From assembly GCA_035637295.1 (NCBI GenBank), contig DASPXM010000071.1, forward strand, positions 3,176 to 67,175: a DNA stretch of 64,000 nt. The letters run 5' to 3'. Shown here in pieces: positions 1,649 to 32,748 of the stretch. The position numbers and the translations under genes were made by a program. The notes beneath the pieces were generated by a model. That model searched no databases. It saw only the letters and a list, made by a program, of their open reading frames with translations, and was not told the DNA's origin. The stretch is from Verrucomicrobiia bacterium. Lineage in GTDB: Bacteria > Desulfobacterota > Binatia > UBA9968. Position 1 is the first letter of the stretch; each line of letters begins with the position of its first letter.

Positions 1649-2158
1649 ATGAAAGAAAGCGTAGCCAATGAAGTTGTTGAAGGGCTGAAGGATGCCGGAG
1701 TGAAGTTTGCTTCCTTCCTTCCCGATAGTTGGCTCAGGCCAATTTACTCGAAAATATCCGAAGATCCACATTTCATGACGATCCCTGTTTCCAACGAAGG
1801 CGTCGGGGTGGGACTGTGTTGCGGTGCCTGGTTGGGCGGAATGAAAGCTGTGATGTTAATGGAAAACACTGGCGTTCGCATGGCTTGTGATCAACTTGCG
1901 CGTCTGGGCATCAGCGTCGGGCTTCCCTGTTTCATGATCATTCCTTATCGTGGAGACTTTGGCGATGGCCAGACGTACGTCGTCGCGCACGGCCAGACTA
2001 TGTTACCGGTTCTCGATGCATTGCGTATACCGTACTTCATCGTGCGCGATGAAAATCGCATTCGGCAATCGATCCGTCGCTGCCTCAAAACGTTGAGCGT
2101 CACCAACTATCACGTGGCGATGATTATGGGCGCCGAAGTGTGCGTCGAGAATCTTTGA
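1649..2158 (+). CDS. split TPP-dependent decarboxylase, alpha-like subunit (sulfopyruvate/phosphonopyruvate decarboxylase ComD-like)
   Basis: 169 aa, TPP-enzyme N-terminal pyrimidine-binding-domain-like sequence. Immediately followed by the partner subunit. Paralog of 31646..32152. Confidence 0.6.
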   Translation: MKESVANEVVEGLKDAGVKFASFLPDSWLRPIYSKISEDPHFMTIPVSNEGVGVGLCCGAWLGGMKAVMLMENTGVRMACDQLARLGISVGLPCFMIIPYRGDFGDGQTYVVAHGQTMLPVLDALRIPYFIVRDENRIRQSIRRCLKTLSVTNYHVAMIMGAEVCVENL

Positions 2159-2172
2159 TCAGGAGAATCGTC

Positions 2173-2766
2173 ATGCAGAGAATCGATTGTTTAAAAGCGC
2201 TGGTTCCCTATATCAAAGATCAGTTGGTGATCATCACTTTGGGCCGAACGGCGCTGGAATGGGCCGAAGTCTGCTCGCATGACGGCAACATGTTCAACTC
2301 GGGAATGGGTAATCATATTCCTGTTGCTCTGGGACTGGCGAAGGCGCTCCCGCATCGGCAGATCATTCTCCTGGACAGCGATGGAAGCGTCCTCATGCTG
2401 CTTCCGGCGCTGACAACATTGGGATCATTTCCAGCGCCCAATTTGAAAATTTTCGTCTTTGACAATGAAGCCTACGAGGGCACCGGAGGCCAGCCGACGG
2501 ATACCTCGCGCGCGGCGGACATCGCCTCCATGGCGCAGGCTGCCGGCGTGCGCGGAGCTATGACGGTCAGAGACTTGGATAAATTTAATGCTGCGGCGCG
2601 CGGCGCTTTGGCCGCGGAAGGAATGGCTTTCGTGGTCGCGAAGGTTGAGCTGTCAAAGGGACCGGCGCCGCGCAAAGATGTCGGTCACAAAGAAGGCCTC
2701 ATCCGGTTTGTGCGGTACGTCGAGAAAACCGAGAATGTAACGATTCTCCATCGCGAGCATCATTGA
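2173..2766 (+). CDS. split TPP-dependent decarboxylase, beta-like subunit (ComE-like)
   Basis: TPP-binding C-terminal-domain-like sequence (GSVLMLLPALTTLG ... FVFDNEAYEGTGGQ). ATG at 2173 with AGGAG 7 nt upstream; the track GTG at 2140 is less likely. Paralog of 32149..32748 (shared FVRYVEKTE/FVRYLERTE tail). Confidence 0.6.
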   Translation: MQRIDCLKALVPYIKDQLVIITLGRTALEWAEVCSHDGNMFNSGMGNHIPVALGLAKALPHRQIILLDSDGSVLMLLPALTTLGSFPAPNLKIFVFDNEAYEGTGGQPTDTSRAADIASMAQAAGVRGAMTVRDLDKFNAAARGALAAEGMAFVVAKVELSKGPAPRKDVGHKEGLIRFVRYVEKTENVTILHREHH

Positions 2767-2886
2767 ACGCAGGTGACGATCCCCTGTGTTTGCCGGAGAA
2801 GAGCGTAAGCACGGGCGCTTACCCCTACATCAACACCTGTTAACTACCCTGCGATGGCGGTTTTCTTGCAATTCCGGATCGTGCGA

Positions 2887-3867
2887 TTACTTGAAAACTT
2901 TGTCCAGAAAACCGCTCTGATCGAGTTCCTTCAGATAAGCTGTTTGAAAAAAATCCTGGGGCTTGTATTTCTTCGCGATCGGGTCACGGATGGCGATCGC
3001 GTCCAACACGGTTTGCATTCCCTTTTCACTGCCGTAGGGCTTTTTGGGAAGAATCCTGAGCAGGTAATCGTAAGTTTCATCCAGCGCTTCGCGGTCGTCG
3101 AGACGCATCCATTGCTTGAGGGTGGCGAGACTTTCTTCCTTGTTTTTATGAATATAAGCGATTCCTTCAACAAAGCCCCGTAGGAAACTAAGAACCGTCT
3201 GATGATTTTTCTGGGCAAAATCAACAGTCGTATCAACGGAATTGTAGGTCCACGTAATACCTGCTTCTTGAAAGCTGGCAATTTGATTGAAGCCCATTTT
3301 TCTCGCCGTCACGGTGAGCGGCGGAGAAATCACGGTGGCATCGACCGAACCGGATCGAAGCGCGGAAAAGCGTGACGTTTGATCTCCAATTCCCAGAATT
3401 ACCGCTTCCTTGTCAGGATTAATTCCCATGTTTCTTAACGCGATTCGAAGCGACAGGTCGGAGACCGATCCCAGGCGGCTGATGGCGAATTTTTTTCCCT
3501 TGAGCTGGCCGGCTGTTTTAATAGCCGGCGAAGCGACGAGAGTGTACGGCAGCGAGTCAATGAAGACCGCGAGAGTCGCGGTGTCGGCTCCGCGCATTTT
3601 TGCATCGACAATGGAACTGGTCCCGCCAGCATGAAACTGAACCGAACCCGACAACAACGTTTGGACCGCGAGAGGCCCGCCTTGAATTGTGATGACTTCG
3701 GTATCCAATCCGTGTTTCTTGAATAGGCGCCGGTCTTGCGCAACCCAAAGCGGCAGCAACTCACCACTCAAGCCGGCGCTGGCGATTCGAACAGGCGCGG
3801 CGTCGGCGGAGGGCAAAATAGAAAAGACGGCTAACCAGAACACAAGGCCGAACAAGATTCGTCGCAT
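2887..3867 (-). CDS. periplasmic NMT1/THI5-like (NitT/TauT-family) ABC substrate-binding protein, paralog 1
   Basis: ATG at 3865-3867 with GGAGG 5 nt upstream. N-terminal Sec signal peptide (MRRILFGLVFWLAVFSILPSADA). The 36-aa upstream extension in the track ORF is probably not translated. Confidence 0.7.
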   Translation of the reverse strand: MRRILFGLVFWLAVFSILPSADAAPVRIASAGLSGELLPLWVAQDRRLFKKHGLDTEVITIQGGPLAVQTLLSGSVQFHAGGTSSIVDAKMRGADTATLAVFIDSLPYTLVASPAIKTAGQLKGKKFAISRLGSVSDLSLRIALRNMGINPDKEAVILGIGDQTSRFSALRSGSVDATVISPPLTVTARKMGFNQIASFQEAGITWTYNSVDTTVDFAQKNHQTVLSFLRGFVEGIAYIHKNKEESLATLKQWMRLDDREALDETYDYLLRILPKKPYGSEKGMQTVLDAIAIRDPIAKKYKPQDFFQTAYLKELDQSGFLDKVFK

Positions 3868-4007: not shown

Positions 4008-5474
4008 CTAGTTGTACTGAAACTGACTGCCGACCTTTCTCGGAACGTAACGACCGACGGGATCCCCGACCATTTCCATCGCATTGCTTTGGTTCGACCA
4101 TTCCGCGACGATGTTGCCGCGGACAATCGTCATCACCGGCCAGCCTGTGAATTCCCACCCTTCATAGATAGACCAGCCGGAGGAAGTGTAGAGCATATCC
4201 GGCTTCACCGCGGCTTTTTTATTTAGGTCCACAACCACAACGTCTCCGTCCGAGCCGACTCTGATGATTCCTTTTTTGGGAAACAGCCCAAATACTTTGG
4301 CATTGCTCTCGCAACAAACCTCCACCATGCGTTCCAGGGTTATACGTCCCTGGTTAACTCCCAAGCTGAGCATCACTTGCATGTAGGCTTCCACGCGAGA
4401 TGAGAAGCCGCTGACGCTCTTCCAGACGTCACCTTTGACTTCCATTTCGCTGCGCGGCACGCCATGGTTCACGTGATCTGTGCCGACGCAGTGAATTCTT
4501 CCCTCTCGGAGCCCGGTCCAGATTCTTTCAATCGTCTCTTTGCTGCGAAGCGGAACGTTGAGCTTCCAGACGTCCCTGGCGAGAGAGAGGTAGCATGGGG
4601 CCGTCTGCGCGTAAACCGTTAGACCGTCTTTGCGCGCGCGCTGCACTTCGTCCATGGTCTCATCGCAGGTGCAGTGCTGGATGTAAAGCGGACACTTCAA
4701 CAATCCCGCGAAATAAGCAAACTGCCGGACATGGGCCGCCTCCGCGAAATGCGGGGAGCGGTCATCCCAGGCGCCGATGTCCATGCGCCCTTGTTTTTTG
4801 AGCCTCTCTTCGAGAACTCGCACGATGCCCCAGTTTTCGCAGTGAAGGCTCACGATGCCCGGAGGCCCAAGCCTGGCGACGTGCTCCATGCCTCGGTAAA
4901 CAGTTCCGTCGTCGAAGCCGAAAAATCCCATGCGCTTTTGAGAGAGCCATCCCGAATTTTCCGGTCGCATCATGTGGAGATAATACTTGAACGAGGTAAT
5001 GCCGAATTTCTCGGCGTATTCCGGGATCTCCTCGGCCTGGCCGTCATTGGCGAGGATTGGCGTTAGAAAGAAATCTACGCGCGAGTGTTTCTCACCGGCC
5101 TCTTTGAAATTCGGGAACACGTTGTTGAAAGAGACGATATCGCTCGGGTCATTTTCGAGCTTGTGTTTCATCTGCATGTTGGGACTGGTGAGCTGCATGC
5201 CCCAGGTGGTCACGCCCGTGGAAGCGGCGGCTTTGGTTTCGCTGATGAGATCGTCCGTAATCGGCCGGTGGATTCCCAGGTGGACCTCGGGGTCGATCAG
5301 ACCCGGAAGAATGTGCTTTCCGCCGACGTCGATCACCTTCTGCGCGTCAGGCAATGCGGAGTCCTTGCCGACGGCGATAAACTTACCGTCTTTTATCGCC
5401 ACTCCGCCCGCGACAATTCCGTTTGAGGAAACTATATTTCCATTCTTGAGGACCAAATCAGCGCGTTCCGCCAT
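4008..5474 (-). CDS. cyclic amidohydrolase, dihydropyrimidinase/hydantoinase family, paralog 1
   Basis: 488 aa. ATG at 5474 with GGAG 7 nt upstream. Collinear with D-hydantoinases (FKYYLH carboxylated-Lys region, GTDHVNHG, SGFSSRVEA, VFGLFPKKG, GSDGDVVVVDL). The canonical D-x-H-x-H metal motif reads DPEVH. Confidence 0.8.
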   Translation of the reverse strand: MAERADLVLKNGNIVSSNGIVAGGVAIKDGKFIAVGKDSALPDAQKVIDVGGKHILPGLIDPEVHLGIHRPITDDLISETKAAASTGVTTWGMQLTSPNMQMKHKLENDPSDIVSFNNVFPNFKEAGEKHSRVDFFLTPILANDGQAEEIPEYAEKFGITSFKYYLHMMRPENSGWLSQKRMGFFGFDDGTVYRGMEHVARLGPPGIVSLHCENWGIVRVLEERLKKQGRMDIGAWDDRSPHFAEAAHVRQFAYFAGLLKCPLYIQHCTCDETMDEVQRARKDGLTVYAQTAPCYLSLARDVWKLNVPLRSKETIERIWTGLREGRIHCVGTDHVNHGVPRSEMEVKGDVWKSVSGFSSRVEAYMQVMLSLGVNQGRITLERMVEVCCESNAKVFGLFPKKGIIRVGSDGDVVVVDLNKKAAVKPDMLYTSSGWSIYEGWEFTGWPVMTIVRGNIVAEWSNQSNAMEMVGDPVGRYVPRKVGSQFQYN

Positions 5475-5653: not shown

Positions 5654-7135
5654 TCATATCGGATAGGTTGCGTATCCAAGCTTCCTCGCTTGGTACTTTC
5701 CTCTCGGTTTACTCACCATCTGATGCTTCTGTTCCTTCTCATTCCACTCTGAAGCAACCTCGCCGCGCAAGATAACCTGATACGGCCAGCCGGTGACCTC
5801 CCAACCTTCAAAAATGGACCAGCCGGCGGAGGTCAAGAGCATATTTTTATTGATCGTTTGTTTCTTTTTCAGGTCCACCAGCACGATGTCAGCATCGGCG
5901 CCCACTCGGAGCACGCCTTTCTTCGGAAAAAGACCAAAGGCTTTGGCGGGATTCTCGCAACAAAACTCGACGCAGCGCGGCAAAGTGATTCGTCCCTTAT
6001 TAACGCCTTCGCTCAGCATGACCGGAAGCATCGCTTCGACTCGCGAAGAAAATCCGCTGACGGTTTTCCATACGTCGCCTTTCACTTCCATCTCTTCTCT
6101 CGGCACGCCGTGGTTCACATGATCCGATCCGATGCAATCGACATCGCCATTGGCCACAGCCTTCCAGAGCCGATCCATCGTCTGCCGATCTCGCAGCGGG
6201 ACGTTGATCTTATAGGCATCGTGGTCGAGCGTCAGGTAGACAAAGCCGGTCTCACCGATGATTTTTACTCCTTCGTTGCGAGCGAGTTTGATCTCATCGA
6301 TGCTTTCCTGGGTCGTGGTGTGAACGATGTAGAGAGGGGATTTGGTGACCCGGGCGAGATAGGCGTACTGGCGCACGTGAATGGCTTCGACAAAGTGCGG
6401 ACAACGCTCATCCCATGCAGCGTTGTCCTTGCGCCCCTGTTTGATCAAACGCGCTTGAAGGACACGGATGATTTCCCAGTTTTCCGGATGAATACAGGTG
6501 ATACAGGGAGGACCCAATCGTCCGACGTGCTCCATTCCAATGTAGACGGTCCCGTCGTCGAACCCATACACGCCAATCTTTTTCTGCGGCTCCCACTGTC
6601 CTAAAGTCTCCTGTCCGCGCTTCAGATGAAGATAATATTTGTAGGAGGTCGCGCCATATTTCTCCGCCAGCAGCGGAATCTCTTCGACCTGCGCGTCGTT
6701 CGCGACAAGCGGGGTTAAAAAGTAATCCACCATCGAGTGCTCGTTGCCCATATCCTCGTACGCCGACATGACGTGACTGAAAGGCACGCTGTCCTGAATC
6801 TCTTTAACTGGTTTGAAGGTGCGGCTAATCGTGGGACTTGTGAGCATCATGCCCCAGGTAGTAACTCCCCCCGCGATGGCCGCCTTAGTTTCCGAGACGA
6901 AATCGTCTTGCAACGAACGGTGAACGCCGAGATGCGTCTCCGGGTCGACGACACCCGGCAAAACGTAATTTCCCTTCGCGTCGATTGTCTTTTTTGCCGG
7001 AAAGGCGCTCAAATCGGTTGCAATCGCAGCGATCTTCTCTCCCTTAATTCCGATGCTCGAAGATATGACATCCGGCGGGATAACCAGCTTTCCATTGTTG
7101 ATGACTAAATCAAATTCCATAGGTCCGCTGGCCAT
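5654..7135 (-). CDS. cyclic amidohydrolase, dihydropyrimidinase/hydantoinase family, paralog 2
   Basis: 493 aa. Same motif set (VVDPETHLGVHR, YKYYLH, GSDHVNHG, AFGLFPKKG). ATG at 7135 verified. Confidence 0.8.
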   Translation of the reverse strand: MASGPMEFDLVINNGKLVIPPDVISSSIGIKGEKIAAIATDLSAFPAKKTIDAKGNYVLPGVVDPETHLGVHRSLQDDFVSETKAAIAGGVTTWGMMLTSPTISRTFKPVKEIQDSVPFSHVMSAYEDMGNEHSMVDYFLTPLVANDAQVEEIPLLAEKYGATSYKYYLHLKRGQETLGQWEPQKKIGVYGFDDGTVYIGMEHVGRLGPPCITCIHPENWEIIRVLQARLIKQGRKDNAAWDERCPHFVEAIHVRQYAYLARVTKSPLYIVHTTTQESIDEIKLARNEGVKIIGETGFVYLTLDHDAYKINVPLRDRQTMDRLWKAVANGDVDCIGSDHVNHGVPREEMEVKGDVWKTVSGFSSRVEAMLPVMLSEGVNKGRITLPRCVEFCCENPAKAFGLFPKKGVLRVGADADIVLVDLKKKQTINKNMLLTSAGWSIFEGWEVTGWPYQVILRGEVASEWNEKEQKHQMVSKPRGKYQARKLGYATYPI

Positions 7136-7372: not shown

Positions 7373-8845
7373 ATGGCTCTCGGTGAGATGGACCTCGTGA
7401 TCCAACATGGGCAGGTGGTGACCAGTAGTGGGGTGAACGAGCTGGCAATCGGTATCAAGGACGGGAGGATTGCCGCTTTAACTTCGGGAACCGAATCGGT
7501 CGAGGCGCGGCAAACTATTGATGCTGAGGGCAAATATGTCTTGCCCGGGATTGTGGACCCCGAAAATCACATGGGAACGCATCGTCCACTGAAAGACAGC
7601 TTAAATAGTGAGACGCAAGCTGCAGCCGCCGGCGGAGTAACTACCTGGGGAATGATGCAGGCGAGTCCCAAGCTCAGAAAAAAATATATCCATGAACCTG
7701 AACCGAGAGATGTTGTCCCGTTTTCAGAGGTCATGCCGGAGTTCATCGAGATCGTTGAATCGCATTCTTTTGTGGATATTTTTCTTACCGGCTTTATTAC
7801 AACTGATGAACAGGCACTCGACATTCCGAAAGTGGCCCGAGAATTCGGCGTCACGTCCTTTAAATATTATCTTCACATCATGCAGGGAGCACGGACTCAG
7901 GCTCAGTGGGCCGGGCGCGAGCGAGGCGGCTGGCTGGGCTTCGATGACGGAACGATTTATCTGGGGATGGAGAAAGCAGCCGAAATCGGACCTCCCGGAA
8001 TCATCTGCATCCACCCTGAGAACTATGAGATCGCCCGCATATTCGAGGATCGGCTCAAGCGGGCGGGACGGACGGACATGGCCGCTTGGGATGAGCGCTC
8101 ACCTCATTTTTGTGAAGCGGGACATGTGAGGACTTATGCTTATTACGCAGGCGTCACCGGCTGCCCGCTCTACGTCGTGCATACGACGACACAAGAATCC
8201 ATAGACGAGATCCTCAAAGCCAGAGCGGAAGGCGTTAAGATTTACAGTCAAACCGGCCACCATTATCTGACCTTGTCGCACGATGTGTGGAAGATCAACG
8301 TTCCGCTTCGCGATGAAGCGACGATGGCTCGACTGTGGGAAGCTTTGCGAGCGGGGCACATCGACTGCATCGGGACTGACCACGTCGATTGGGGAATGTC
8401 GCGCGATCAGATGGACAAGGGCAATGTCTGGGAAACCAGCAGCGGCTTCCCGTCGCGAGTGGAGGCGTATTTGCCGGTGATGCTGACCGAAGTTCACAAA
8501 GGAAAGATTTCTCTGGAAAAACTGGTCCAGGTGTGTTGTGAGAATCCCGCACGGATTTTCGGCCTCTACCCCAAAAAGGGAGCGATCGGCGTTGGCTCCG
8601 ATGCCGATTTGGTGATCGTCGATCTCGAGCGAACCGCGAAGGTGACACAGGACATGATCTACAGCTCCGCTGGCTGGTCAATCTGGGAAGGCAAAGAGCT
8701 TAAAGGCTGGCCGGTCATGACCATTCTTCGCGGAAGGGTCATCATGGAGTGGCCCGACGGCGCGCCGCACGCGATTATCATGAGTGAAAAGCCTGCCGGC
8801 CGCTATGTGCCGCGCAAACCCGGCCACCAGCTTTATCCGATCTAA
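7373..8845 (+). CDS. cyclic amidohydrolase, dihydropyrimidinase/hydantoinase family, paralog 3
   Basis: 490 aa. ATG at 7373 with GAGGAAA 9 nt upstream. Motifs IVDPENHMGTHR, FKYYLH, GTDHVDWG, IFGLYPKKG. Confidence 0.8.
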   Translation: MALGEMDLVIQHGQVVTSSGVNELAIGIKDGRIAALTSGTESVEARQTIDAEGKYVLPGIVDPENHMGTHRPLKDSLNSETQAAAAGGVTTWGMMQASPKLRKKYIHEPEPRDVVPFSEVMPEFIEIVESHSFVDIFLTGFITTDEQALDIPKVAREFGVTSFKYYLHIMQGARTQAQWAGRERGGWLGFDDGTIYLGMEKAAEIGPPGIICIHPENYEIARIFEDRLKRAGRTDMAAWDERSPHFCEAGHVRTYAYYAGVTGCPLYVVHTTTQESIDEILKARAEGVKIYSQTGHHYLTLSHDVWKINVPLRDEATMARLWEALRAGHIDCIGTDHVDWGMSRDQMDKGNVWETSSGFPSRVEAYLPVMLTEVHKGKISLEKLVQVCCENPARIFGLYPKKGAIGVGSDADLVIVDLERTAKVTQDMIYSSAGWSIWEGKELKGWPVMTILRGRVIMEWPDGAPHAIIMSEKPAGRYVPRKPGHQLYPI

Positions 8846-8892
8846 CTCAGCGAAGCGAAATTTTTTTCGGTACTGACTGGAGGAAATTGCTT

Positions 8893-9855
8893 ATGCTGCG
8901 ACGCTGCCAAGTGATGGTCTTGTTCCTGATTGTTTTCTTTATCCCCGCGCTCGTCTTCGCTCAGAGGGTCAGAACCAGCTATGGCGGCACGTCCGGCTAC
9001 AACGTACCGCTTTGGGTGGCGCATGAGGCCGGTTTTTTTAAGAAGCAAGGACTCACTTCTGAGCTGATTCTCATCAGCGGCGACGCCGCGAGTTTGCAGG
9101 CGCTCTTGGCCAACGATCTCGATTTCACCAACGCCGCGGGAACGACGCCCATCCAAGGAACGCTTCAAGGCGCCGACTTTGTCATTGTCGCCTCGTCCTA
9201 CAATCTGATGCCGTACAGTTTCGTCGTCACTCCCGACATTCGCACCGCGGCTGACCTGAAAGGGAAACGAATGGCTGTTTCTCGGCTGGGCGGGATCACT
9301 GAATTTGGCGGCCGGCTGACCTTGGAGAAACTCGGTCTAGGGCAGAACGATATGACGCTGATTCAGGCCGGCGCCGATGCGCCGCGGATCGCCGCGCTCC
9401 AGTCCGGCGCCGTCGCGGCGACGGTGCTTGCCCCGCCGGGCCTCTACGTCGCGACTGCCCTCGGAAATAAAGTGTTGGCCGACCTCGGCGATCTGGGCGT
9501 CAAGTATCCTTCATCGGTGATCGTCACACGGCGCGCTTATCTGGCGCAAAATCGTCCGACCGTCAAAAAGTACCTGGCCGCATTTACCGAGGGGTTGCAT
9601 CTTTATGCGGAGAACAAAGATTTCGCGCTCGGCGTCATGCAGAAATACGCCAAGCTCAAAGACCGCGACGCTATGTCCAGGTCCCATGACTATTTTGTGA
9701 AGAACACAACGCTTGTCCCTCTTACCGATCCGGTGGCGATCAAGAATGCATTGGGCGATAAAGCTGGAGCCCGCAACCCCGAGGATTTTTACGACAACTC
9801 GCTGCTGCAAGAATTGGTCAAAGAAGGGTTCGTCGATAAGCTGAGAAAAAAATAG
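8893..9855 (+). CDS. periplasmic NMT1/THI5-like ABC substrate-binding protein, paralog 2
   Basis: ATG at 8893 with GGAGG 9 nt upstream; the track start at 8887 is TTG. Signal peptide MLRRCQVMVLFLIVFFIPALVFAQR. Shares GTSGYNVPLWVAHEAGFFKKQGL with paralog 3. Confidence 0.7.
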   Translation: MLRRCQVMVLFLIVFFIPALVFAQRVRTSYGGTSGYNVPLWVAHEAGFFKKQGLTSELILISGDAASLQALLANDLDFTNAAGTTPIQGTLQGADFVIVASSYNLMPYSFVVTPDIRTAADLKGKRMAVSRLGGITEFGGRLTLEKLGLGQNDMTLIQAGADAPRIAALQSGAVAATVLAPPGLYVATALGNKVLADLGDLGVKYPSSVIVTRRAYLAQNRPTVKKYLAAFTEGLHLYAENKDFALGVMQKYAKLKDRDAMSRSHDYFVKNTTLVPLTDPVAIKNALGDKAGARNPEDFYDNSLLQELVKEGFVDKLRKK

Positions 9856-9912
9856 TGTACGCCAAGTCGTGGCTGGAGCATTGACCAAATCCGCCGTGGG
9901 CGTAAAGGAGCA

Positions 9913-11186: not shown

Positions 11187-11214
11187 CCGTCGTTTACCGC
11201 AAGGTTTCAAATTT

Positions 11215-21538: not shown

Positions 21539-21551
21539 GCTGCCCCGTCAA

Positions 21552-24313: not shown

Positions 24314-25715
24314 TTATGTGGTTAAATTCGGCGCGATCGTTAACGAAATCAATTCGCTGACCTGCTCGACTTCATCCAACCGACGCAAGCACACCAGGAG
24401 ATCGTCAATCTGCTTCGGTGGAAGCAGCGGCTCTGCCAGCGGACGAAATTTACGCTCCTGTTCCTCGTCAGTCATGAACCGTTTGAAATGGCCAAGGTGG
24501 TAGGCCACTTTGGTCGAGAGAACCTTTCCTGACTTCATCTCGACATCCACAATGTTCAAAGGAACTTCCGGCCATGCAACGACGGGTTCGTCGCCGATCC
24601 GTATTTTGATTTTCTGCATGAGCGCACGCACAGCGGGCCGTTTGTAGTACACTTCGTCGTAATGGCGAATCTCCAGGTTGCCTTCCATAAGCGCAACGGC
24701 CATCACAAAGGGAAGACTGTGATCGGCGCTCTCTCTTGTTTCCGGCTGCCAATTCGCTTCTCCTGAGCCCATGACCTCGTAGCCGGCGGGAAAAGTCTGC
24801 AGGCGAATCTCTTTAATCTCATCGAGATCGGAGATTTCGGAGCGCAAGTTAAGAATGGCCTCTATCGCGTTTTGGGAAAAATAGCCTGAGGGAAATGCTT
24901 TCAACCGTGCTTTCATGATGCGATACGTCTCGGTGGAGTTCGCGAATGACGCGATCTCGAAGCGGATCCCTGTGCTACTCAGAAATCCCGCTTTACCTTC
25001 GAACGCTTCCTCCGGCCCTGTCATCCCTTTCGCAGCTAGCATGGCGCAAAACACGGCGTTCCTCGATGCGTTCGCTAACGCGCATCCCTTCCAATGGGAA
25101 ATCTGACCTCTTCTGATTTGCTCAAGACTGATATGAGACGATACCGCCAAGCTGATCGCGTTAGCCATCTGTTCTTTCGTATGGCCGAAACAGTTTGGAC
25201 GCCACGACAGCGGCTGCGATGACTCCGTAGGTCGACTGATCCCAACTGCGGCTGGGCTCTTTCGATCCGGCGTCGATGAGCCCACAAAACACCTCATAAC
25301 CCAAAACCATTCCGAGGATTACGTCTTTGCCGTTGCCGTGTCTGGCGTCGACGACGGCGAACACCGGAGCAAGTAGATCGCTTGGGTGGCAGGTGGGCGA
25401 GCCGGCATACGTGTCATTGAAATCGAGATAGCGGATCATCACACCATTGGCGAAGGCGGCGAGGTCGGGGGAGGTTTTCTGGCCGCTGATCAAAACGGTG
25501 GACGGATTGGCCGAAGTTATCTCAGATGCGGCGGCTCTAGCGATGCTGGCTGGAGGATTTTCGGCGCCGCCGACCGCGCAGCCGACGGTATCGATCACAA
25601 TGTGCTTGGTCCGGCGTATCACTTCCTCCGGCAGATCGCGATACGACAACTTCAACGCATAGGCGCAAAGATGATTAATGACTCGGTCGGGCATCTTTAC
25701 TGAGTCAACCTTCAC
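24314..25715 (-). pseudogene. MmgE/PrpD-family (2-methylcitrate-dehydratase-like) gene with one frameshift
   Basis: N-terminal 184-aa ORF (25161-25715) and C-terminal 327-aa ORF (24314-25297) belong to one PrpD-family protein. Junction ...AAVVASKLF|GHTKEQMANAISLAVS is shifted at the TTT run near 25183-25193. Confidence 0.5.
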
Positions 25716-25973: not shown

Positions 25974-27035
25974 ATGGGAGCGATCGATGCTGACGCGCAT
26001 GTGATCGAGACGGTGCAGACCTGGAGTTATCTCGAAGTGGATGAGCGACGTTTCACGCCGCAACTAATGAGGCAAACTTCCGGAGAGGAACTCCTCAGTA
26101 ACGAAGGAATCGCCGTGCGCGATTTCTGGGTGATCGAGGGCCGCGCGCACGGCAAGGACCGCAACGTCGGCACTAATACGCCTCAAGAATCGCGGGAGAT
26201 GCTAAGCGTCAAGGCGCGGCTCAATCATATGGATGAGCTTGGAATCGAAACGCAGGTGCTTTATCCGACGCTCTTTCTCCGGCCGGTTGTGCAGGAAGCC
26301 GAGCGCGAACGCGCCTTGTGCAAATCATATAATCGCTGGATGGCCGATCTTTGGCGGCAAGGAAAGGGTCGGTTGCGTTGGGTCGCGAAGCCGCCGCTTC
26401 GCCTGCTCGAAAAATCGCCGGCCGTCGTAAGGAACGAACTTGAGTGGGCCAAGAACAACGGCGCGTGCGGCATCTTCATGCGAGGCTTGGAATGTGAGCG
26501 CGCCCTCGGCGCCCCATATTTTTACCCGCTGTGGCAGATATCCGGAGATCTCGATCTACCGGTCTGCATCCATTCCGCCAACGGTAGTTTTATTCATCAT
26601 GAGTTTTTCAATGAGGACACGACCTTTACAAAGTTTAAGCTCGCCGTCGTTGGCGCGTTTCATACGGTTCTCGAAAAAGAGATCCCGACAAAGTTCCCGA
26701 AGGTCCGTTGGGGCTTCGTTGAGGTGAGCGCGCAATGGGTGCCTTATGTGTTGAACGATCTGGCCGACCGCTTCCGACGCAAGGGTAGATCGTTTCCCAA
26801 AGATGCGCTGGCCGTCAATAACATGTGGGTGGCCTGCGAGAACACGGATGATCTGCCCTACGTGTTGAACCACGCGGGTGAGGATTGTCTGATGATCGGC
26901 ACCGATTACGGGCACCACGATCCTTCAACCGAGCTCAATGCCATTCATCTACTGCGTAATGATACGCGTGTTGCACCCGCGGCTATACGCAAAATTCTTG
27001 AGGTCAATCCGCGGAAGTTTTACGGCCTTGATTGA
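25974..27035 (+). CDS. amidohydrolase-2 family metal-dependent hydrolase (ACMSD/LigI-like TIM barrel)
   Basis: 353 aa. N-terminal MGAIDADAHVIE (Asp/His metal motif of PF04909). AGGAG 8 nt upstream of the ATG. Confidence 0.7.
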   Translation: MGAIDADAHVIETVQTWSYLEVDERRFTPQLMRQTSGEELLSNEGIAVRDFWVIEGRAHGKDRNVGTNTPQESREMLSVKARLNHMDELGIETQVLYPTLFLRPVVQEAERERALCKSYNRWMADLWRQGKGRLRWVAKPPLRLLEKSPAVVRNELEWAKNNGACGIFMRGLECERALGAPYFYPLWQISGDLDLPVCIHSANGSFIHHEFFNEDTTFTKFKLAVVGAFHTVLEKEIPTKFPKVRWGFVEVSAQWVPYVLNDLADRFRRKGRSFPKDALAVNNMWVACENTDDLPYVLNHAGEDCLMIGTDYGHHDPSTELNAIHLLRNDTRVAPAAIRKILEVNPRKFYGLD

Positions 27036-27084: not shown

Positions 27085-28563
27085 CTATTCGGCTAGAAAA
27101 CGTACGGGCAGTCCTTTTGCGGCCAGAGCCTTTTTGTAGAGTTCGTCAGTGATTTTGTGAGAACGGTCGGGAATTTTTTTGATGCGACTGTAGAGGCGGT
27201 GCATTTTCTTGCTGATCGGCTCCACTCTCCGTACCAGATTTTCTTCGTCAATGCGCGTGAGGCGCCCGCCCGCGACAACGATCCTGCCGGCGACGATAAC
27301 CGTGTGAACAGACTGACCGCCTTCACAGAAGACGAGTTGGTGGACGACATCTCTCAATGGGCGAAGCCGGAGGGTCGGCTTAAGCAGAATCAAATCGGCA
27401 CTGTACCCTGGCTTGATCTGGCCGATTTTACCTCGCCATGCGGGAACAGCCTGCGCGCCGTTAACCGTTCCCATCTTTAGCGCGTCAGCCGCAGTGATCC
27501 AGTTTTCCGGATCTTCCGCGACGACGCGTGATAAATACGCAGCCAATCTCATCTGCTCAAAAATAGAATAACTGTCACTGGTATCTCCGCCGTCGGTACC
27601 CAGAGCCACGTTGACGCCGCGGGATTTCAATTTGGCAACAGGGGCGATGCCGCTCCCGAGCTTCAAATTGCTCGCCGGATTGTGAACGGCGCTGGTGCCG
27701 GATGAAGCCATGAGATCGATATCTCTGTCATCCAACCAGATGCTATGGGCGCCTGAGACCCGAGAAGAAAGAAATCCGATTCCGGCTAGGTGAGCACAAA
27801 TCGTTCTCCCGTAAAGTTTTTGAGCCGTCCACGCCTGCAATCGCGTCTCTAGAAGATGCGTGTGGATGCCCAAATCATACTGTTCGGCGATCTTTACTAC
27901 CTCGCGGAGTAGCCCGTCGCTGCAGTTCATCGGCGATGAAGGTCCCAGCATGATCCCGGAACGACTGTCTCCCCGAGGCAAACGCGCGAGAACCGTAAGC
28001 ACTTCATCCTTCCAGGGCTCGGGCGACGTTTGTGCAGCCTTGTTTCTTCGGTTGCTTGATTGCGTTGCCAAGCGGATTGAATCCTGATCGCGTAGCGAGG
28101 GAACCAGCATGCCTCGAATCCCGGTTTTCTCAAACGCGCCGAGAATCGCCTCCATTTTTTTGACCGTCAGTCCGGGGCGCGTGGAAAAATGATCCACGAC
28201 CGCCGTCACTCCGTTTTTAAGCATCTCCGAACACGCGAGCTCTGCCGCCGTGCCGATTTCCTCCGCTGTCAACTTGGCCATATCTTCTGTGGCCGTTCTG
28301 TAGGTGCGCCAGATTTCCATCCGCGCATTGTCGCGAAAGCTTTTTTGCAAAATCTCCGTCAGATGACAGTGAGCGTTTATCAAGCCCGGCATGACGATCA
28401 TTCCCGAGCAGTCGATTCGCTTTGTGATCGGAGTTCCTCTTGTGTGAATTTTCCTTCCCATCTGAGCAATCGTTTCGCCATCGATGAGAATCTGCTGCGT
28501 TTCGAGAACCGGCTTCGAGCTGTTCAAAGTGATAACAGTCGCATTTTCAAGGAGGATTGCCAT
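27085..28563 (-). CDS. TRZ/ATZ-family amidohydrolase (aminohydrolase/deaminase-like) with C-terminal extension
   Basis: 492 aa. MPGLINAHCHL HxH motif. HTHLLET, ALGTDG and ADLILLKP motifs. ATG at 28563. Confidence 0.75.
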   Translation of the reverse strand: MAILLENATVITLNSSKPVLETQQILIDGETIAQMGRKIHTRGTPITKRIDCSGMIVMPGLINAHCHLTEILQKSFRDNARMEIWRTYRTATEDMAKLTAEEIGTAAELACSEMLKNGVTAVVDHFSTRPGLTVKKMEAILGAFEKTGIRGMLVPSLRDQDSIRLATQSSNRRNKAAQTSPEPWKDEVLTVLARLPRGDSRSGIMLGPSSPMNCSDGLLREVVKIAEQYDLGIHTHLLETRLQAWTAQKLYGRTICAHLAGIGFLSSRVSGAHSIWLDDRDIDLMASSGTSAVHNPASNLKLGSGIAPVAKLKSRGVNVALGTDGGDTSDSYSIFEQMRLAAYLSRVVAEDPENWITAADALKMGTVNGAQAVPAWRGKIGQIKPGYSADLILLKPTLRLRPLRDVVHQLVFCEGGQSVHTVIVAGRIVVAGGRLTRIDEENLVRRVEPISKKMHRLYSRIKKIPDRSHKITDELYKKALAAKGLPVRFLAE

Positions 28564-28610: not shown

Positions 28611-29630
28611 TTAGCGCGCGTAGAGCGCATCAATAAACCCGCTCTGATCCAGCTCTCTAATGAAGCGCAGATCGACGAGATCTTCCGGTTTGATGGAGCG
28701 CGCCTTGGTGTCTTTCTCTCCCAAAGTTCCCAAAACAGTCTTGAGTCCCTCGATTGTCGGATACTGTTTGCGCGGAAGCTTATCCTCACTGATGTAGCGG
28801 GTATAACTCTTCTCCATGCTTTCTTGATCCCTGACGCGGCCAAAGTATTTCGCGGCGACTTTCAGTCCTGTTTGGCGATCGGTCTTGATGCGGTGGATGG
28901 CTTCCACATGCGATTTTACATACCGGCGAACAATGTCAGGCTGCTGTGCGATATACCGTCGGGAGGTGGCGACGCCAGCATGTTGAAAGGCCAAGCCGAG
29001 AGCCGACACATCCGCAAGTAGATTCAAGCCATTCTTTTGCGCGATGAACATCGTCGGCGGATTTAATACGGTTGCTTCGACGCGCTTGGCGGCGAGGGCG
29101 GCCAAACGGTCAGTCGTCGTACCGAGCTGTACAATACCGACGTCCTTGTCCGGAACGAGGCCGCTCCGCTGAAGGGCGAATCTGGCAATGAAGTCGGAAA
29201 CGGATCCAAAACGGCTAATGGCCACGGACCCGCCTCTCAACTGCTCCGGGCTTTTGATATCGGCCCGGCCCATTAGCCAATAATCGAGTGTGACCGTTCC
29301 TCCGGCAATAAGCACAGGGTCCGATCCGCCAATATAAGCGTTCGCCACCTCCGGGCCGGCGTTTTGTGATATGGAAATGTCCCCCGAAACCAAAGCCATG
29401 ACCGCCGTTGTGCCGCCGGTAAAATAAACCAGCTGAACATCGAGACCATTCTTCGCATAGATTCCGGTATCCTTGGCAATCCAGGCGGGTAACTGATCGA
29501 AACTGATTGCGCTGTATCCTACAGTGAGGGTAGATAATTTTTGGGCCGAGTGCGTGTTCGGCGCCAGAGCCGTAAGCACGAGAATCGACGCGATAAAAAT
29601 TGAGAGCCTTGCGGTATGACGATTGGTCAT
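28611..29630 (-). CDS. periplasmic NMT1/THI5-like ABC substrate-binding protein, paralog 4
   Basis: ATG at 29628-29630 gives an N-terminal signal peptide MTNRHTARLSIFIASILVLTALAPNTHSA. The track GTG start at 29723 would bury the signal peptide, so it is rejected. Confidence 0.65.
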   Translation of the reverse strand: MTNRHTARLSIFIASILVLTALAPNTHSAQKLSTLTVGYSAISFDQLPAWIAKDTGIYAKNGLDVQLVYFTGGTTAVMALVSGDISISQNAGPEVANAYIGGSDPVLIAGGTVTLDYWLMGRADIKSPEQLRGGSVAISRFGSVSDFIARFALQRSGLVPDKDVGIVQLGTTTDRLAALAAKRVEATVLNPPTMFIAQKNGLNLLADVSALGLAFQHAGVATSRRYIAQQPDIVRRYVKSHVEAIHRIKTDRQTGLKVAAKYFGRVRDQESMEKSYTRYISEDKLPRKQYPTIEGLKTVLGTLGEKDTKARSIKPEDLVDLRFIRELDQSGFIDALYAR

Positions 29631-29682: not shown

Positions 29683-31113
29683 CTACGACAGGACGTGTTT
29701 CCACTTCGCGGCCGTTTGAGCACGCTCTTCCGGAGTCAGCGCGTGTTCCTTCGAAAAATCCTTCATCCAGCGAAATGGCCGGCACGCGTCGATGATGGCG
29801 CGGGAGTTGGTGAAATCGCCCTGACTTCTTCGCTCCGGCGGAATCCTTGGATCGATGGGACTGCTCCAGCAGCCGCGCATAATCTCGATCGATGTTTCCG
29901 GGTCGCATCTTGTCGCGATCGCCCACAAGACGTCGGCCGTATTCGACGGATCGATATCGTCGTCCACTACGATCACGAAGCGGCCCAAGTAGCCGCCTTC
30001 GCGGGCGCCGAGGGCTACATGCGCCGCTTGGCGCGCGTGACCCCCGTAACGTTGCCGCAGCGAGATGACTTGTAAGAATCTCATTCCCGATTCGAGCTGC
30101 CAGACACCCTTCACGTCGGTCACTCCGCACTTTTCGAGCTCGTTCCAGATTTCGGCGGAGCGAAAAAGCAGCGACAGGTAACTGTCGAGGGGATAAATCT
30201 TCAAATCTCCAACAACGGTGATGATAGGATCGGCGCGGTAATATACGCGTTTGACGTGAATGACGGGCGCCGGACGAGTGGCCGAGGCATAGTATCCCGT
30301 CCATTCGCCAAACGGTCCTTCGGGCCGTGATTCGACATCGGGCGGCGGCATCTCGCCCTCCAGAACGATTTCAGCCTGGGCCGGAATCGGCAATCCGGTG
30401 TGCTCGCCGGCAACAACGTCAAATGGCCTACCCGCGACATGACCCGCAAAATCATATTCCGATACTCCCCAAGGAAGCCCTAGAGATGCGGCCGCGAAAA
30501 GAACCGGCTCGATGCCGCACACAACCGCCACAGGACAAGCCTGCTTTTTAGTCCAGTACTGCTCCGCGATAAGCCGGGTTTGTTTGCCGGGCGATATATA
30601 GATGCTCACCACGTCAGGCTCTTGAACCTGAACCCTCGCAGTCCCGAGATTGACCCACCCTCCTTCCTGGTCTTTTGTGATCACGGCATCCTGAGTGCCG
30701 ATGTACTTTCCACCGTCATCTTTGTGAAGCTTGGGCGCGGGGAAATTAAAGACGTCAATGTCTTTGCCTCGCTGGATGTGTTCCGTAATCGGTCCTGACG
30801 CGACGAGTTTGGGCGGAACAGGCTTATGATCCTCCGTCCGTTTGCGGATCGCGTTGACTAAAAAAGGGCCTCTCAAAGTGTCGTCGACCCCCAGCGCCTC
30901 GGCGGTCCGGCGTTGCGTCTGAAACATGTTGATCAGGACGCGGTGACCCTCGGGATATCCTTTGATTTTGTCGAACAGCAGCGCCGGAGGTTCCGCTCCC
31001 GACCCCGACACTTCGGCCACGGCGCCGATGTCAGCATCTGCGTCCGCGCCTTCGACGATTTTCAATTGGTCTTTCGCGCGCCAATGATCGATTAGTCCCC
31101 GCAAGTCACGCAT
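29683..31113 (-). CDS. UbiD-family (prenylated-FMN-dependent) decarboxylase
   Basis: N-terminus MRDLRGLIDHWRAKDQLKIVEGADADADIGAVAEVSGSGAEPPALLFDKIKGYP is typical of UbiD. ATG at 31113 with GGAG 8 nt upstream; the track start at 31149 is less likely. Confidence 0.75.
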   Translation of the reverse strand: MRDLRGLIDHWRAKDQLKIVEGADADADIGAVAEVSGSGAEPPALLFDKIKGYPEGHRVLINMFQTQRRTAEALGVDDTLRGPFLVNAIRKRTEDHKPVPPKLVASGPITEHIQRGKDIDVFNFPAPKLHKDDGGKYIGTQDAVITKDQEGGWVNLGTARVQVQEPDVVSIYISPGKQTRLIAEQYWTKKQACPVAVVCGIEPVLFAAASLGLPWGVSEYDFAGHVAGRPFDVVAGEHTGLPIPAQAEIVLEGEMPPPDVESRPEGPFGEWTGYYASATRPAPVIHVKRVYYRADPIITVVGDLKIYPLDSYLSLLFRSAEIWNELEKCGVTDVKGVWQLESGMRFLQVISLRQRYGGHARQAAHVALGAREGGYLGRFVIVVDDDIDPSNTADVLWAIATRCDPETSIEIMRGCWSSPIDPRIPPERRSQGDFTNSRAIIDACRPFRWMKDFSKEHALTPEERAQTAAKWKHVLS

Positions 31114-31429
31114 CTTTTGCTCCTTCGATAAGGATAAAAATTTTCCCATCTTCTACAGCGACCGCGTATCGCTCGATTTTGTATCCCGTACAATTCAATC
31201 CTTCTCCAGTTTCGAGATCGAAGGTAAAGGCGTGTTGGCCGCAGCGAATCATCTTGTTCCAAACATTGCCCTTTTCCAAAGGCGCTCCCTCGTGAGGGCA
31301 CCGTCTTTGAATGGCGTAGATCACTCCGGAGCAGCGCAGAACCAACACGTCTTTCCCGTCGGGCAGCTTAGCAGTCAAATAACCTTCCTCGTCAAGTTCG
31401 GAGCGCTGTCCAACGAAAATATTTTCCAT
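31106..31429 (-). CDS. Rieske [2Fe-2S] ferredoxin-like small protein
   Basis: CPHEGAPL...(17)...CGQHAF Rieske CXH-CXXH motif. ATG at 31427-31429; the track start is TTG at 31456. 8-nt overlap with the UbiD gene. Confidence 0.6.
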   Translation of the reverse strand: MENIFVGQRSELDEEGYLTAKLPDGKDVLVLRCSGVIYAIQRRCPHEGAPLEKGNVWNKMIRCGQHAFTFDLETGEGLNCTGYKIERYAVAVEDGKIFILIEGAKDA

Positions 31430-31645
31430 GAGATCTGTCTTCGAAAGATTAAACAAAAATTCTTACACGTTCCCGATTTCCTAGTCGAAGGCAAGCGCGC
31501 TGTCAAGTTGGCTTCTACCGATATAGCTTCTGAACGAAGCCGCTTGCTTCGAGCTCTTTTAGGAGAGAGGTCTTGACAAAACTGAACCAGTAGCGTGCCT
31601 TGACATCAATGCCTGCTTTTCTTATAGGCAGTTGATCGGTGCGTT

Positions 31646-32152
31646 ATGGAGCAAGAACTTGCAGCGCGACTTGTGGGCGGGTTGAAAGAAGCGGGGATCA
31701 GTTTTGTTTCATATCTCCCGGAAACGAGGCTGAGTCAAATCGTGCCTCTGCTGCGCGAAGATCCGTCTTTTATGGTGGCTGCCGTCGCCAATGAATCTGA
31801 AGCTGTGTCGATCGCGGCCGGCGCTTCACTCGGCGGCCGTCCCGCTGCAGTTTATATGGAAGGCAGCGGCATCTACGTCGCTTCGTATAATCTCCTGGTC
31901 CTTGGCAGACGGCTTGGAGTGCCGATGCTTTTGCTCGCTGCGTATTATGGCAGCATCCTGGACAAGCGTAATAGCTTTCTCTACGCGATGCCGGGCATCC
32001 ATATGATTCCAATTCTCCAGTCGCTCGACATCCAGCATGAAGTTTTGGACAAAGGCGACTCTCTAGAGGACAAGATCAAAGGCGCCGTAAAGATGATGCA
32101 CGCCATCAAGCAACCGGTGGCGCTACTCTTTACCGGCGAGTTCACTGCATGA
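31646..32152 (+). CDS. split TPP-dependent decarboxylase alpha-like subunit, second paralog
   Basis: 168 aa. Same architecture and conserved blocks as 1649..2158. ATGA overlap with the beta-like subunit. Confidence 0.6.
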   Translation: MEQELAARLVGGLKEAGISFVSYLPETRLSQIVPLLREDPSFMVAAVANESEAVSIAAGASLGGRPAAVYMEGSGIYVASYNLLVLGRRLGVPMLLLAAYYGSILDKRNSFLYAMPGIHMIPILQSLDIQHEVLDKGDSLEDKIKGAVKMMHAIKQPVALLFTGEFTA

Positions 32153-32748
32153 AGCGTTCTGACTGTTTTGACTTTCTCGCGCCGCTGATCAAGGAACAGC
32201 TTGTGATTGGCTCGCTCAGCGGCCAGCGGGTGGAGTGGGGGGATCGTTGCCAGCACGAAGGAAACCTGCTCGTGGCATCGATGGGCGCGGCTTTGGGTGT
32301 CGGCATCGGTTTGGCGATGGTTTTACCGCGGCGCAAAGTGATCGTGCTCGAATCCGACGGCAGTATGCTCTTGTCGCTCTACAATCTGCCAACTCTCGGA
32401 AATATCAATCCGGCCAATCTTGTTGTCTTCGTTTTCGATAACGAGGTCTATAGCGGGACGCGCATCAGCGAGCCGAGCGCGACAGCGGGGAAGACAGATC
32501 TCGCAGCCGTGGCGCGCGGCTGCGGCATCGAGCAGTCAACGACCGTGCGCGATTTAGAATCTTTCAAGCGAGAAGCCGCAAAAGCGCTCGCAGAAAATGT
32601 TCTGCGTTTTGTCGTTTGCAAGGTCGACCAGACTACCGGACACCGTCAAATCCAGCGACCGAACGAAGACTTGTGGGAACACAAGTACCGATTTGTGAGA
32701 TACCTGGAACGAACCGAAGGTAAAGAGATTTTCAAGGGTCGCGGCTGA
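32149..32748 (+). CDS. split TPP-dependent decarboxylase beta-like subunit, second paralog
   Basis: 199 aa. GSMLLSLYNLPTLG ... FVFDNEVYSGT and the FVRYLERTE tail parallel 2173..2766. Confidence 0.6.
   Translation: MKRSDCFDFLAPLIKEQLVIGSLSGQRVEWGDRCQHEGNLLVASMGAALGVGIGLAMVLPRRKVIVLESDGSMLLSLYNLPTLGNINPANLVVFVFDNEVYSGTRISEPSATAGKTDLAAVARGCGIEQSTTVRDLESFKREAAKALAENVLRFVVCKVDQTTGHRQIQRPNEDLWEHKYRFVRYLERTEGKEIFKGRG

Follow-up and report, generated by a model that had tools for sequence, protein, structure and literature searches.

Conserved cassettes of periplasmic binding proteins and ExH-type cyclic amidohydrolases in a Binatia gene cluster probably devoted to nitrogen-rich ring compounds

The DNA analysed here, a 64-kb window of contig DASPXM010000071.1 from a member of the Binatia, carries at positions 1649-32748 a dense cluster of genes for hydrolases and periplasmic binding proteins. 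In our judgement this is probably a modular catabolic supercluster, built from recurring uptake-and-hydrolysis cassettes for nitrogen-rich ring compounds, and its substrates are most likely to be cyclic ureides, amides or amino-heterocycles. All open reading frames (ORFs) of at least 100 amino acids were scanned against Pfam and NCBIfam, and the neighbouring sequence was read for 10 kb upstream of the window, which gave a cluster of at least 42 kb in total with 31 kb inside the window. A first-pass annotation of the same DNA had described a cluster of about 30 kb, and the families it listed were found again in our scans: four cyclic-amidohydrolase paralogs, a HyuA/HyuB pair, two TRZ/ATZ enzymes, an Amidohydro_2 enzyme, a Rieske-UbiD operon and four NMT1-type proteins with signal peptides. 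Its list omitted two split thiamine pyrophosphate (TPP) enzyme pairs, an M20 peptidase, a PrpD/MmgE gene, a ROK kinase and a ModA-like protein.

An amidohydrolase clade with an ExH metal motif

The four cyclic amidohydrolases are CA1 (4008-5474, minus strand), CA2 (5654-7135, minus strand), CA3 (7373-8845, plus strand) and CA4 (18709-20160, plus strand), with pairwise identities of 49-55%. All of them matched Pfam Amidohydro_1 (PF01979) at 48-66 bits against a cut-off of 25; this match covered the C-terminal half only, and the N-terminal half was recognised by NCBIfam models. The dihydropyrimidinase/D-hydantoinase model TIGR02033, with a cut-off of 393.25 bits, was not reached by CA1 to CA4 (242.5, 267.3, 242.5 and 242.6 bits, respectively). 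The proteins also stayed below the cut-offs for allantoinase (at most 234 against 358-631 bits), dihydroorotase (at most 202 against 482) and the hydantoin-5-propionate amidohydrolase ErtD (at most 196 against 600-650).

The best solved relatives were the L-hydantoinase 1gkr and the D-hydantoinase 1k1d. In the alignments with these two structures, the first histidine of the HxH metal motif was replaced in CA2 by glutamate (Glu66), giving DPETH against DEHVH and DPHTH; the corresponding motifs of CA1, CA3 and CA4 are PGLIDPEVH, PGIVDPENH and PGVVDPECH. The bridging Lys166 as well as His216, His272 and Asp338 were retained in CA2, matched residues of 1k1d and were invariant in an alignment of 16 sequences. 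The CA proteins resemble the D-/L-hydantoinases and dihydropyrimidinases (1k1d, 1gkr; TIGR02033) in superfamily, fold signature and length (about 490 against 458-460 amino acids), and at the binuclear metal site they retain the carboxylated-lysine position, the aspartate and both of the other histidines. They differ from these enzymes in the ExH motif, in scores of about 60% of the family cut-off and, for CA2, in some 15 extra residues inserted behind the lysine, which fall at the site of the substrate-gating loop in the D-/L-hydantoinases and dihydropyrimidinases.

The motif, in the form DPExH or DSExH, was present in 4/4 paralogs, in 120/120 of the best database homologs and in 120/120 copies from 77 genome loci. 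When 1.84 billion cluster representatives were searched with a profile, the ExH proteins were confined to the first seven ranks, all with 590 bits or more, and to two fragments; from rank 8 onward (at most 532 bits) the canonical HxH was seen. No NCBIfam model, PDB entry or paper describing this group was found. Judged by their sequences, the ExH amidohydrolases form a discrete and sharply delimited clade without a characterised or solved member. This metal motif of the clade, the most distinctive feature seen here, was passed over by the first-pass annotation. Two cyclic-amidohydrolase representatives outside the ExH clade (P0266 and P0354) carry QxH in place of HxH, and the first metal histidine may have been replaced on more than one occasion.

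Binding proteins, their pairing with the amidohydrolases and the transporter

The NMT1/THI5-type periplasmic binding proteins of the window are SBP1 (2887-3867, minus strand; Pfam NMT1, 9e-17), SBP2 (8887-9855, plus strand; NMT1, 4e-21), SBP3 (17725-18696, plus strand; 57% identical to SBP2) and SBP4 (28611-29630, minus strand; NMT1_2, 2e-14). PF09084 or PF13379 was above its cut-off in each, and all four carry a signal peptide, judged by inspection from a positive N-terminus (that of SBP1 reads MRRILFGLVFWLAVFSILPSADA), a hydrophobic stretch and an AxA-like cleavage site; they belong to the NitT/TauT-type family of exported binding proteins. The top NCBIfam names, SsuA, TauA and SaoX, were all below cut-off, and the SsuA_fam model (TIGR01728) gave 67-93 bits (77, 93, 80 and 82 for SBP1 to SBP4) against 163.5. 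Two further NMT1-type binding proteins lie in the 10 kb upstream, making six in the cluster of at least 42 kb. Signal peptides were absent from CA1-CA4 and from the two TRZ/ATZ enzymes, in contrast to the binding proteins, so uptake must precede hydrolysis.

An AlphaFold2 model of SBP2, predicted with the use of database homologs, had a predicted local distance difference test (pLDDT) score of 90 and the class II binding-protein fold. The solved folds nearest to the model were those of the uncharacterised Bordetella protein 3qsl and of a thiamin binder, ThiY, Thi5, SsuA, TauA and PqqT. Similarity to solved binders was marginal at the sequence level, the best being 3qsl with an E value of 2e-10. 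The modelled fold is compatible with a heterocycle ligand, without proving one.

Within the window, the claim that each cyclic amidohydrolase sits directly beside a binding protein holds for three of the four; CA2 lies one gene away, in a CA2-CA1-SBP1 operon. The repeated module of binding protein and amidohydrolase that the first-pass annotation described was recovered in related genomes as well. We scanned genomes with the amidohydrolase alignment as seed and classed the neighbours by phmmer, which gave 52 loci of Binatia and allied lineages with 73 ExH genes. An NMT1 binding-protein gene lay within 450 bp of 39 of these genes, a binding protein of another type was found for 8 more, and an ABC (ATP-binding cassette) permease lay within 5 kb of a single one. 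A reciprocal scan of metagenomes, centred on the SBP2/SBP3 clade, covered 79 loci and 517 kb, and adjacency was counted in those 28 loci whose flanks extended for 1.5 kb or more in each direction. An ExH amidohydrolase adjoined the binding protein in 20/28 of them, and some enzyme family of the island did so in 28/28. Counted from either partner, adjacency was 53-71%, compared with about 19% by chance according to our own estimate, in which the family makes up about 10% of local genes. The pairing exceeds chance and is general in related genomes.

Several gene orders recur as cassettes: SBP-CA-TRZ-M20-SBP; CA-SBP-CA-TRZ-ROK; Rieske-UbiD-SBP-TRZ; and a longer string in which HyuAB is followed by the amidase with its 67-amino-acid ORF and next by SBP-TPPab-(TRZ)-CA-SBP-CA. 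The gene order of the window was found again in three loci (L135, L139 and L140) whose binding proteins are only about 62% identical to those described here. L139 and L140 keep the overall order minus the HyuAB/amidase and PrpD/Amidohydro_2 segments, so that the window looks like a conserved core with inserted cassettes. A related organism has, on a contig of 213 kb, a 21-kb stretch (L172:1-20987) with binding-protein genes of the NMT1 type (five) and the TctC type (one) and without any membrane protein; they lie among ExH amidohydrolases, TRZ, a split TPP pair, a homolog of ornithine cyclodeaminase/mu-crystallin, an asparaginase, M20 and RidA.

The absence of a permease, ATPase or transcription factor from the island, as first annotated, was upheld: neither a permease nor an ABC ATPase nor a transcription regulator was found in the island or its surroundings, which were covered for 10 kb on the upstream and 31 kb on the downstream side, and the cognate membrane components expected of NitT/TauT-type binding proteins are missing from the 64-kb window and the 10 kb before it. 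The gaps of the island were also inspected; they held no unassigned ORF with 150 or more free bases and none for a DNA-binding protein or for either ABC membrane component. The same was seen on a larger scale, as the 517 kb of binding-protein-centred loci contained zero permeases and one marginal ATPase fragment, and ABC membrane components were nearly absent from 131 related loci that add up to about 1.2 Mb and carry over 190 NMT1 genes.

A transporter does accompany more distant relatives. ExH homologs with 41-46% identity, which we call group B, occur in Acidobacteriota, Actinomycetota (including Streptomyces sp. NPDC007991), Chloroflexia and Alphaproteobacteria. Their operon (L061-L085, e.g. 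L072:8033-19317), which is conserved and uncharacterised, has the order GntR regulator / CA, isochorismatase-like hydrolase, DUF1989, AA_synth (PF06684), Amidohydro_1, class II aldolase, ThiY-like NMT1 binding protein, ABC ATPase and fused permease, often with a TRZ gene, and no protein of this operon reached an NCBIfam cut-off. NitT/TauT-type ATPase and permease genes also stand beside NMT1 binding proteins in a Binatia metagenome-assembled genome (MAG; L055) and in a Chloroflexi MAG (L008), the latter carrying group-A-type amidohydrolases. Going by gene neighbourhoods, the ExH clade appears tied to NMT1-type ABC import across phyla, and the arrangement in Binatia is best read as one of receptors detached from a translocator encoded elsewhere.

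The binding proteins of the window share their fold and Pfam family with those of the NitT/TauT systems ThiXYZ, SsuABC and TauABC. Both ThiY and the thiamin binder 4nmy bind N-heterocycles, and the group B operon combines a ThiY-like binding protein with ATPase and permease. The difference is that in Binatia as a rule, the window included, the genes for these proteins stand apart from ATPase and permease genes and are joined to catabolic enzymes. Many orphan binding proteins with few membrane components are known from the Bug/TctC family of Bordetella and from HisJ and ArgT, which share HisQMP. These systems are alike in having many paralogous periplasmic receptors near metabolic genes and far fewer translocators, but they belong to another binding-protein family and another transporter class. 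Our literature searches found no expansion of NMT1-type receptors coupled to amidohydrolases, and nothing relevant on the DUF1989/isochorismatase pairing or on Binatota amidohydrolases.

Organisation of the cluster and its other enzymes

The island is bordered by the two split TPP pairs. After the first (plus strand, 1649-2766) come the CA2-CA1-SBP1 operon (minus strand, from 7135 down to 2887) and a plus-strand unit of CA3, SBP2, the M20 peptidase, HyuA and HyuB (7373-15152). The minus-strand unit of the 67-amino-acid ORF and the amidase (17491 down to 15852) is followed by a 180-amino-acid ORF without family assignment, and SBP3, CA4, TRZ1 and the ROK kinase lie on the plus strand (17725-22466). 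Next are the ModA-like gene, a 109-amino-acid ORF and the PrpD-like gene on the minus strand, the Amidohydro_2 gene on the plus strand, the minus-strand operon of Rieske, UbiD, SBP4 and TRZ2 (31429 down to 27085), and the second split TPP pair (plus strand, 31646-32748). The 10 kb upstream of the window encode all three subunits of a molybdenum hydroxylase and the last part of another large subunit. They also bring the number of UbiD genes to two and that of split TPP pairs to three, and they add two binding proteins, an F420-type luciferase-like oxidoreductase and a DUF3891 protein. From 33 to 64 kb the window holds housekeeping genes (smpB, panBC, ddl, ftsZ and the dcw cluster). A stand-alone LivK-type binding protein (Peripla_BP_6; 43181-44365, plus strand) lies among these housekeeping genes with no transporter genes nearby.

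The term island, used by the first-pass annotation, remains apt in a functional sense only. We considered and rejected a mobile genomic island: the G+C content is uniform (0.52-0.59 across the window), Pfam scans of the window found no integrase or transposase domain, tRNA and Rfam scans of the window found no tRNA and no Rfam element, and synteny is kept in L139 and L140. The cluster is syntenic across Binatia and probably vertically inherited, and it continues for at least 10 kb upstream of the window. Since no Rfam element was present, there is no riboswitch to point at a ligand. A search of the island intergenic regions for a common operator-like motif gave only pairwise 11-mers and one local direct repeat. 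This repeat, TTCTACAATCG, occurs at 17525-17535 and 17546-17556 (21 bp start to start) between the divergent amidase and SBP3-CA4 operons; it could be an operator, and it is absent from the other island intergenic regions.

Proteins identical to those of the window were also found on the MAG contigs WNGF01000586.1 and WNGE01000062.1 and in the JGI metagenomes 3300012358 and 3300012360. Homologs were labelled as Candidatus Binatia or 'Deltaproteobacteria' MAGs, and the record titles of further contigs with the cluster name groundwater MAGs. The JGI metagenomes carrying the cluster presumably come from vadose-zone soil, and we take the host lineage to be aerobic.

The two TRZ/ATZ-family metal hydrolases, TRZ1 (20183-21538, plus strand; HSH motif) and TRZ2 (27085-28563, minus strand; HCH motif), are 38% identical to each other. 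They matched the whole Amidohydro_1 model with 179 and 180 bits (2e-52 for TRZ1), which places them in the family, and neither reached an equivalog cut-off; the top NCBIfam models for TRZ1 were N-ethylammeline chlorohydrolase and 5'-deoxyadenosine deaminase, both below cut-off. Behind TRZ1, as the last gene of the SBP3-CA4-TRZ1 operon, lies a ROK-family sugar kinase (21552-22466, plus strand) that is fructokinase-like, with 436 bits against a cut-off of 443. The string CA-TRZ-ROK occurs also in L036, L135, L139 and L140. The ROK protein was considered as the missing regulator and rejected, given that it lacks a DNA-binding domain and comes close to the equivalog cut-off for fructokinase.

HyuA (11215-13320, plus strand; Pfam Hydantoinase_A, 7e-83) and HyuB (13317-15152, plus strand; Hydantoinase_B, 6e-115) are the subunits of an enzyme of the ATP-dependent lactamase/hydantoinase type. 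The model nearest to HyuA was the caprolactamase alpha subunit, with 569 bits against 1000. The amidase-signature enzyme (15852-17294, minus strand; Pfam Amidase, 7e-118) is GatA/AtzE-like (GatA 354 against 481 bits, AtzE 333 against 461), and its start is overlapped by the 67-amino-acid ORF (17288-17491, minus strand), a possible GatC/AtzG-like small subunit. The AtzE/AtzG-like amidase complex of the first-pass annotation survives only in part. The amidase and a small ORF in the AtzG/GatC position are in place, as in the AtzE-AtzG 1-carboxybiuret hydrolase (6c62), but the amidase is nearer to GatA (310 bits to the PDB entry 4wj3, 217 to 6c62), and the ORF matched Pfam GatC with E=0.069 only and no PDB entry significantly. 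AtzD, AtzF and AtzH are absent from the window, as are a cyanuric acid hydrolase and an allophanate hydrolase. The ORF and the amidase are conserved together in genome loci L022, L023 and L025 and in metagenome loci L098, L110, L132, L150 and L157. The 180-amino-acid ORF downstream of the amidase (15295-15837, minus strand) has a His/Ser-rich N-terminal stretch, HTSHSSHNSHNSQN, and no Pfam or NCBIfam match.

Two genes are interrupted in the window. The M20 peptidase/deacylase (9913-11186, plus strand), ArgE/DapE/YgeY-like and with a Pfam M20_dimer match, has two 1-bp insertions; an intact 421-amino-acid copy in L087 is identical except for the extra T near 10160 and the extra C near 10960 in the window. 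The PrpD/MmgE-family gene (24314-25715, minus strand; Pfam) has one, an extra T near 25190, as the only difference from an intact 459-amino-acid copy in L091. As these frameshifts are single-base insertions with zero substitutions relative to intact copies of the same population, faulty assembly or a very recent change at strain level is the probable cause.

The UbiD-family decarboxylase (29683-31113, minus strand) scored 262 bits with TIGR00148, above 244.85, and this generic UbiD subfamily model was the only curated cut-off passed by any island protein. The upstream UbiD copy scored 393 bits, and UbiX, which supplies the prenylated flavin mononucleotide cofactor, was not found in the window. 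A small Rieske [2Fe-2S] protein (31106-31429, minus strand; Pfam Rieske, 1.5e-13) is the first gene of the Rieske-UbiD-SBP4-TRZ2 operon and is conserved with UbiD in L010, L036 and L135. The first split TPP pair consists of an alpha-like protein (1649-2158, plus strand; 83 bits with sulfopyruvate decarboxylase alpha, cut-off 148) and a beta-like protein (2173-2766, plus strand; Pfam TPP_enzyme_C, 4e-17) that stayed below cut-off with PRK06163 (112 bits) and sulfopyruvate decarboxylase beta (101 bits). The second pair, alpha-like (31646-32152, plus strand) and beta-like (32149-32748, plus strand), was assigned by Pfam and NCBIfam, and the two alpha-like copies are 32% identical.

The Amidohydro_2-family enzyme (25974-27035, plus strand) had a Pfam match of 7.5e-14 and no NCBIfam match; its N-terminus, MGAIDADAHV, seems by eye to have DxH where members of the family usually carry HxH. 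The 109-amino-acid ORF (23883-24212, minus strand), after a non-coding gap of 559 bp, may be what is left of a gene, as it resembles the C-terminal end of Amidohydro_2 weakly (E=0.012). The ModA-like binding protein (SBP_bac_11; 22550-23323, minus strand) gave 56 bits with the modA model (cut-off 62.5), has no recognisable signal peptide as called, and is shorter, at 221-225 amino acids, in other assemblies. It may be tied to the supply of molybdate for the upstream molybdenum hydroxylases.

Proposed pathway, rival explanations and significance

We infer a catabolic sequence of the following kind. In each cassette, the secreted NMT1/THI5-type binding protein would capture a small nitrogen-rich ring compound in the periplasm, and after import the cytoplasmic hydrolases would dismantle it. 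The TRZ/ATZ-type hydrolase could deaminate the compound or open a first or second ring, the ExH cyclic amidohydrolase would open a cyclic ureide, imide or lactam ring, and the M20 hydrolase or the GatA-like amidase would strip the carbamoyl or amide group to give ammonia and CO2. The molybdenum hydroxylases, UbiD, the split TPP decarboxylases, HyuAB, Amidohydro_2 and the PrpD-like protein may prepare aromatic or carboxylated precursors and process the opened chains. Because no cassette has a membrane component of its own, a shared and remote ABC translocator is most likely, and several binding proteins would dock on a single NitT/TauT-type translocator, or on a small number of them, with genes in another part of the genome. 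The N-heterocycle substrates proposed by the first-pass annotation are presumed from the chemistry of the enzyme families.

The order of reactions is proposed by analogy with the reductive urate pathway, in which a molybdenum enzyme, the TRZ-family SsnA, the hydantoinase HyuA and the M20 ureido-hydrolase YgeY act in sequence, with ring openings and decarbamoylation (PMC12507026, PMC12990295). The reductive uric-acid cluster of E. coli and Clostridia (XdhD, YgfK, SsnA, HyuA, YgeW, YgeY and YgeX) likewise unites a xanthine-dehydrogenase-family enzyme, a TRZ/ATZ hydrolase, a hydantoinase and an M20 protein (PMC12507026, PMC12990295). It differs in having the permease UacT where the Binatia cluster has binding proteins, and it is found in gut anaerobes. 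Moreover, all of the families in common were below the equivalog cut-offs (SsnA at most 201 against 444 bits, YgeY 61 against 321), and no carbamoyltransferase (YgeW), pyridoxal phosphate lyase (YgeX) or YgfK-type domain was present among the ORFs of the window.

The cluster might instead be a known pathway that annotation had missed, namely reductive pyrimidine, hydantoin, reductive or oxidative purine, or s-triazine/biuret degradation. Family names do coincide (dihydropyrimidinase/hydantoinase-like, HyuA/HyuB, TRZ/ATZ, AtzE-like amidase and, upstream, the xanthine-dehydrogenase family), and the combination of TRZ, hydantoinase and M20 enzymes is similar to the trio of SsnA, HyuA and YgeY in urate breakdown (PMC12990295). 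We consider this very unlikely, since the scores fall far under the equivalog cut-offs, from dihydropyrimidinase, allantoinase, AtzE and caprolactamase to SsnA and YgeY, and since the amidohydrolases are ExH and not HxH. Besides the urate and s-triazine proteins named above, a hydantoin racemase, an NCS1 permease, a dihydropyrimidine dehydrogenase and a beta-ureidopropionase had no Pfam match in the window. The earlier statement that this is not a described pyrimidine, hydantoin, purine or s-triazine locus is borne out, as no protein reached the curated cut-off of such an enzyme and no characterised operon with the same gene order was found. Another class of substrate, lactams or cyclic dipeptides (diketopiperazines), would have the amidohydrolase open the ring and the M20 enzyme cleave the linear peptide. 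HyuAB being nearest to caprolactamase, an M20 protein that is ArgE/DapE/peptidase-like and not a classical carbamoylase, and an amidase family that includes 6-aminohexanoate cyclic-dimer hydrolase would all suit such substrates. However, the TRZ/ATZ deaminase-type enzymes, the molybdenum hydroxylases and UbiD are hard to fit, and the group B partners, an isochorismatase-like hydrolase and DUF1989, belong to families tied to ureide/guanidine chemistry; we find this alternative unlikely.

The role of the binding proteins can also be read in other ways. They could be periplasmic sensors acting on a signalling protein, could serve in sequestration or as chaperones, or could work with a carrier that is not of the ABC type, as might be suspected from the near absence of ABC membrane components around so many NMT1 genes and from the 21-kb array of L172 with its six binding-protein genes and no membrane protein. 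We doubt this explanation: sensor kinases, chemoreceptors and regulators are equally missing next to them, NMT1-type proteins stand directly beside ABC ATPase and permease genes in group B, L008 and L055, the fold of the SBP2 model is the standard one of class II and is nearest to those of ABC receptors, and the cytoplasmic partner enzymes require an import route. It would be more surprising still if the adjacency were the by-product of a genome rich in both families and the proteins were ordinary binders of sulfonate, taurine or nitrate. The names SsuA, TauA and SaoX, and a luciferase-like gene adjoining one binding protein upstream of the window, point that way. Against them stand the SsuA_fam scores, the closer similarity of the luciferase-like protein to F420-dependent reductases than to SsuD, an adjacency well above the chance estimate, and the finding that 0/4 of the window's NMT1 genes lie in its 31 kb of housekeeping DNA. 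No transporter was found in the 10 kb upstream of the window or the 31 kb downstream of the island, and we regard this last explanation as highly improbable.

Several points weigh against the supercluster of uptake-and-hydrolysis cassettes that we favour. None of the enzymes reaches the cut-off of a named equivalog that could point to its substrate. The shared translocator was not located in the Binatia sequence, which was read to 10-kb flanks. SBP1 is about 30% identical to SBP2 and SBP3, while CA1 is about 52% identical to CA3 and CA4; with the trees of binding proteins and amidohydrolases unmatched, one-to-one specificity would be hypothetical. The M20 and PrpD genes are frameshifted in the window assembly, and the ExH substitution could alter the chemistry in unforeseen ways.

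In summary, Binatia are abundant and uncultured, and what they feed on has been largely guesswork; the cluster points to a large and conserved investment of these bacteria in scavenging nitrogen-rich ring compounds. Its two features of interest are the ExH amidohydrolase clade and the systematic receptor-enzyme cassettes that lack a transporter. More tentatively, the ExH proteins may be a new functional family in which the glutamate metal ligand alters the metal or the chemistry, acting on ring compounds unrecognised as a bacterial nitrogen or carbon source, and Binatia may have diversified this family into enzyme-plus-receptor cassettes that share a remote ABC translocator. If true, this would be a receptor-multiplexing strategy so far undescribed for NitT/TauT-type importers. 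The cluster is a natural case for studying many periplasmic receptors that share few ABC translocators, and the ligands of the binding proteins, once found by binding screens, would name the substrates. A tractable way in is provided by the related full operon, which Acidobacteriota, Actinomycetota (a cultured Streptomyces among them) and Alphaproteobacteria carry.

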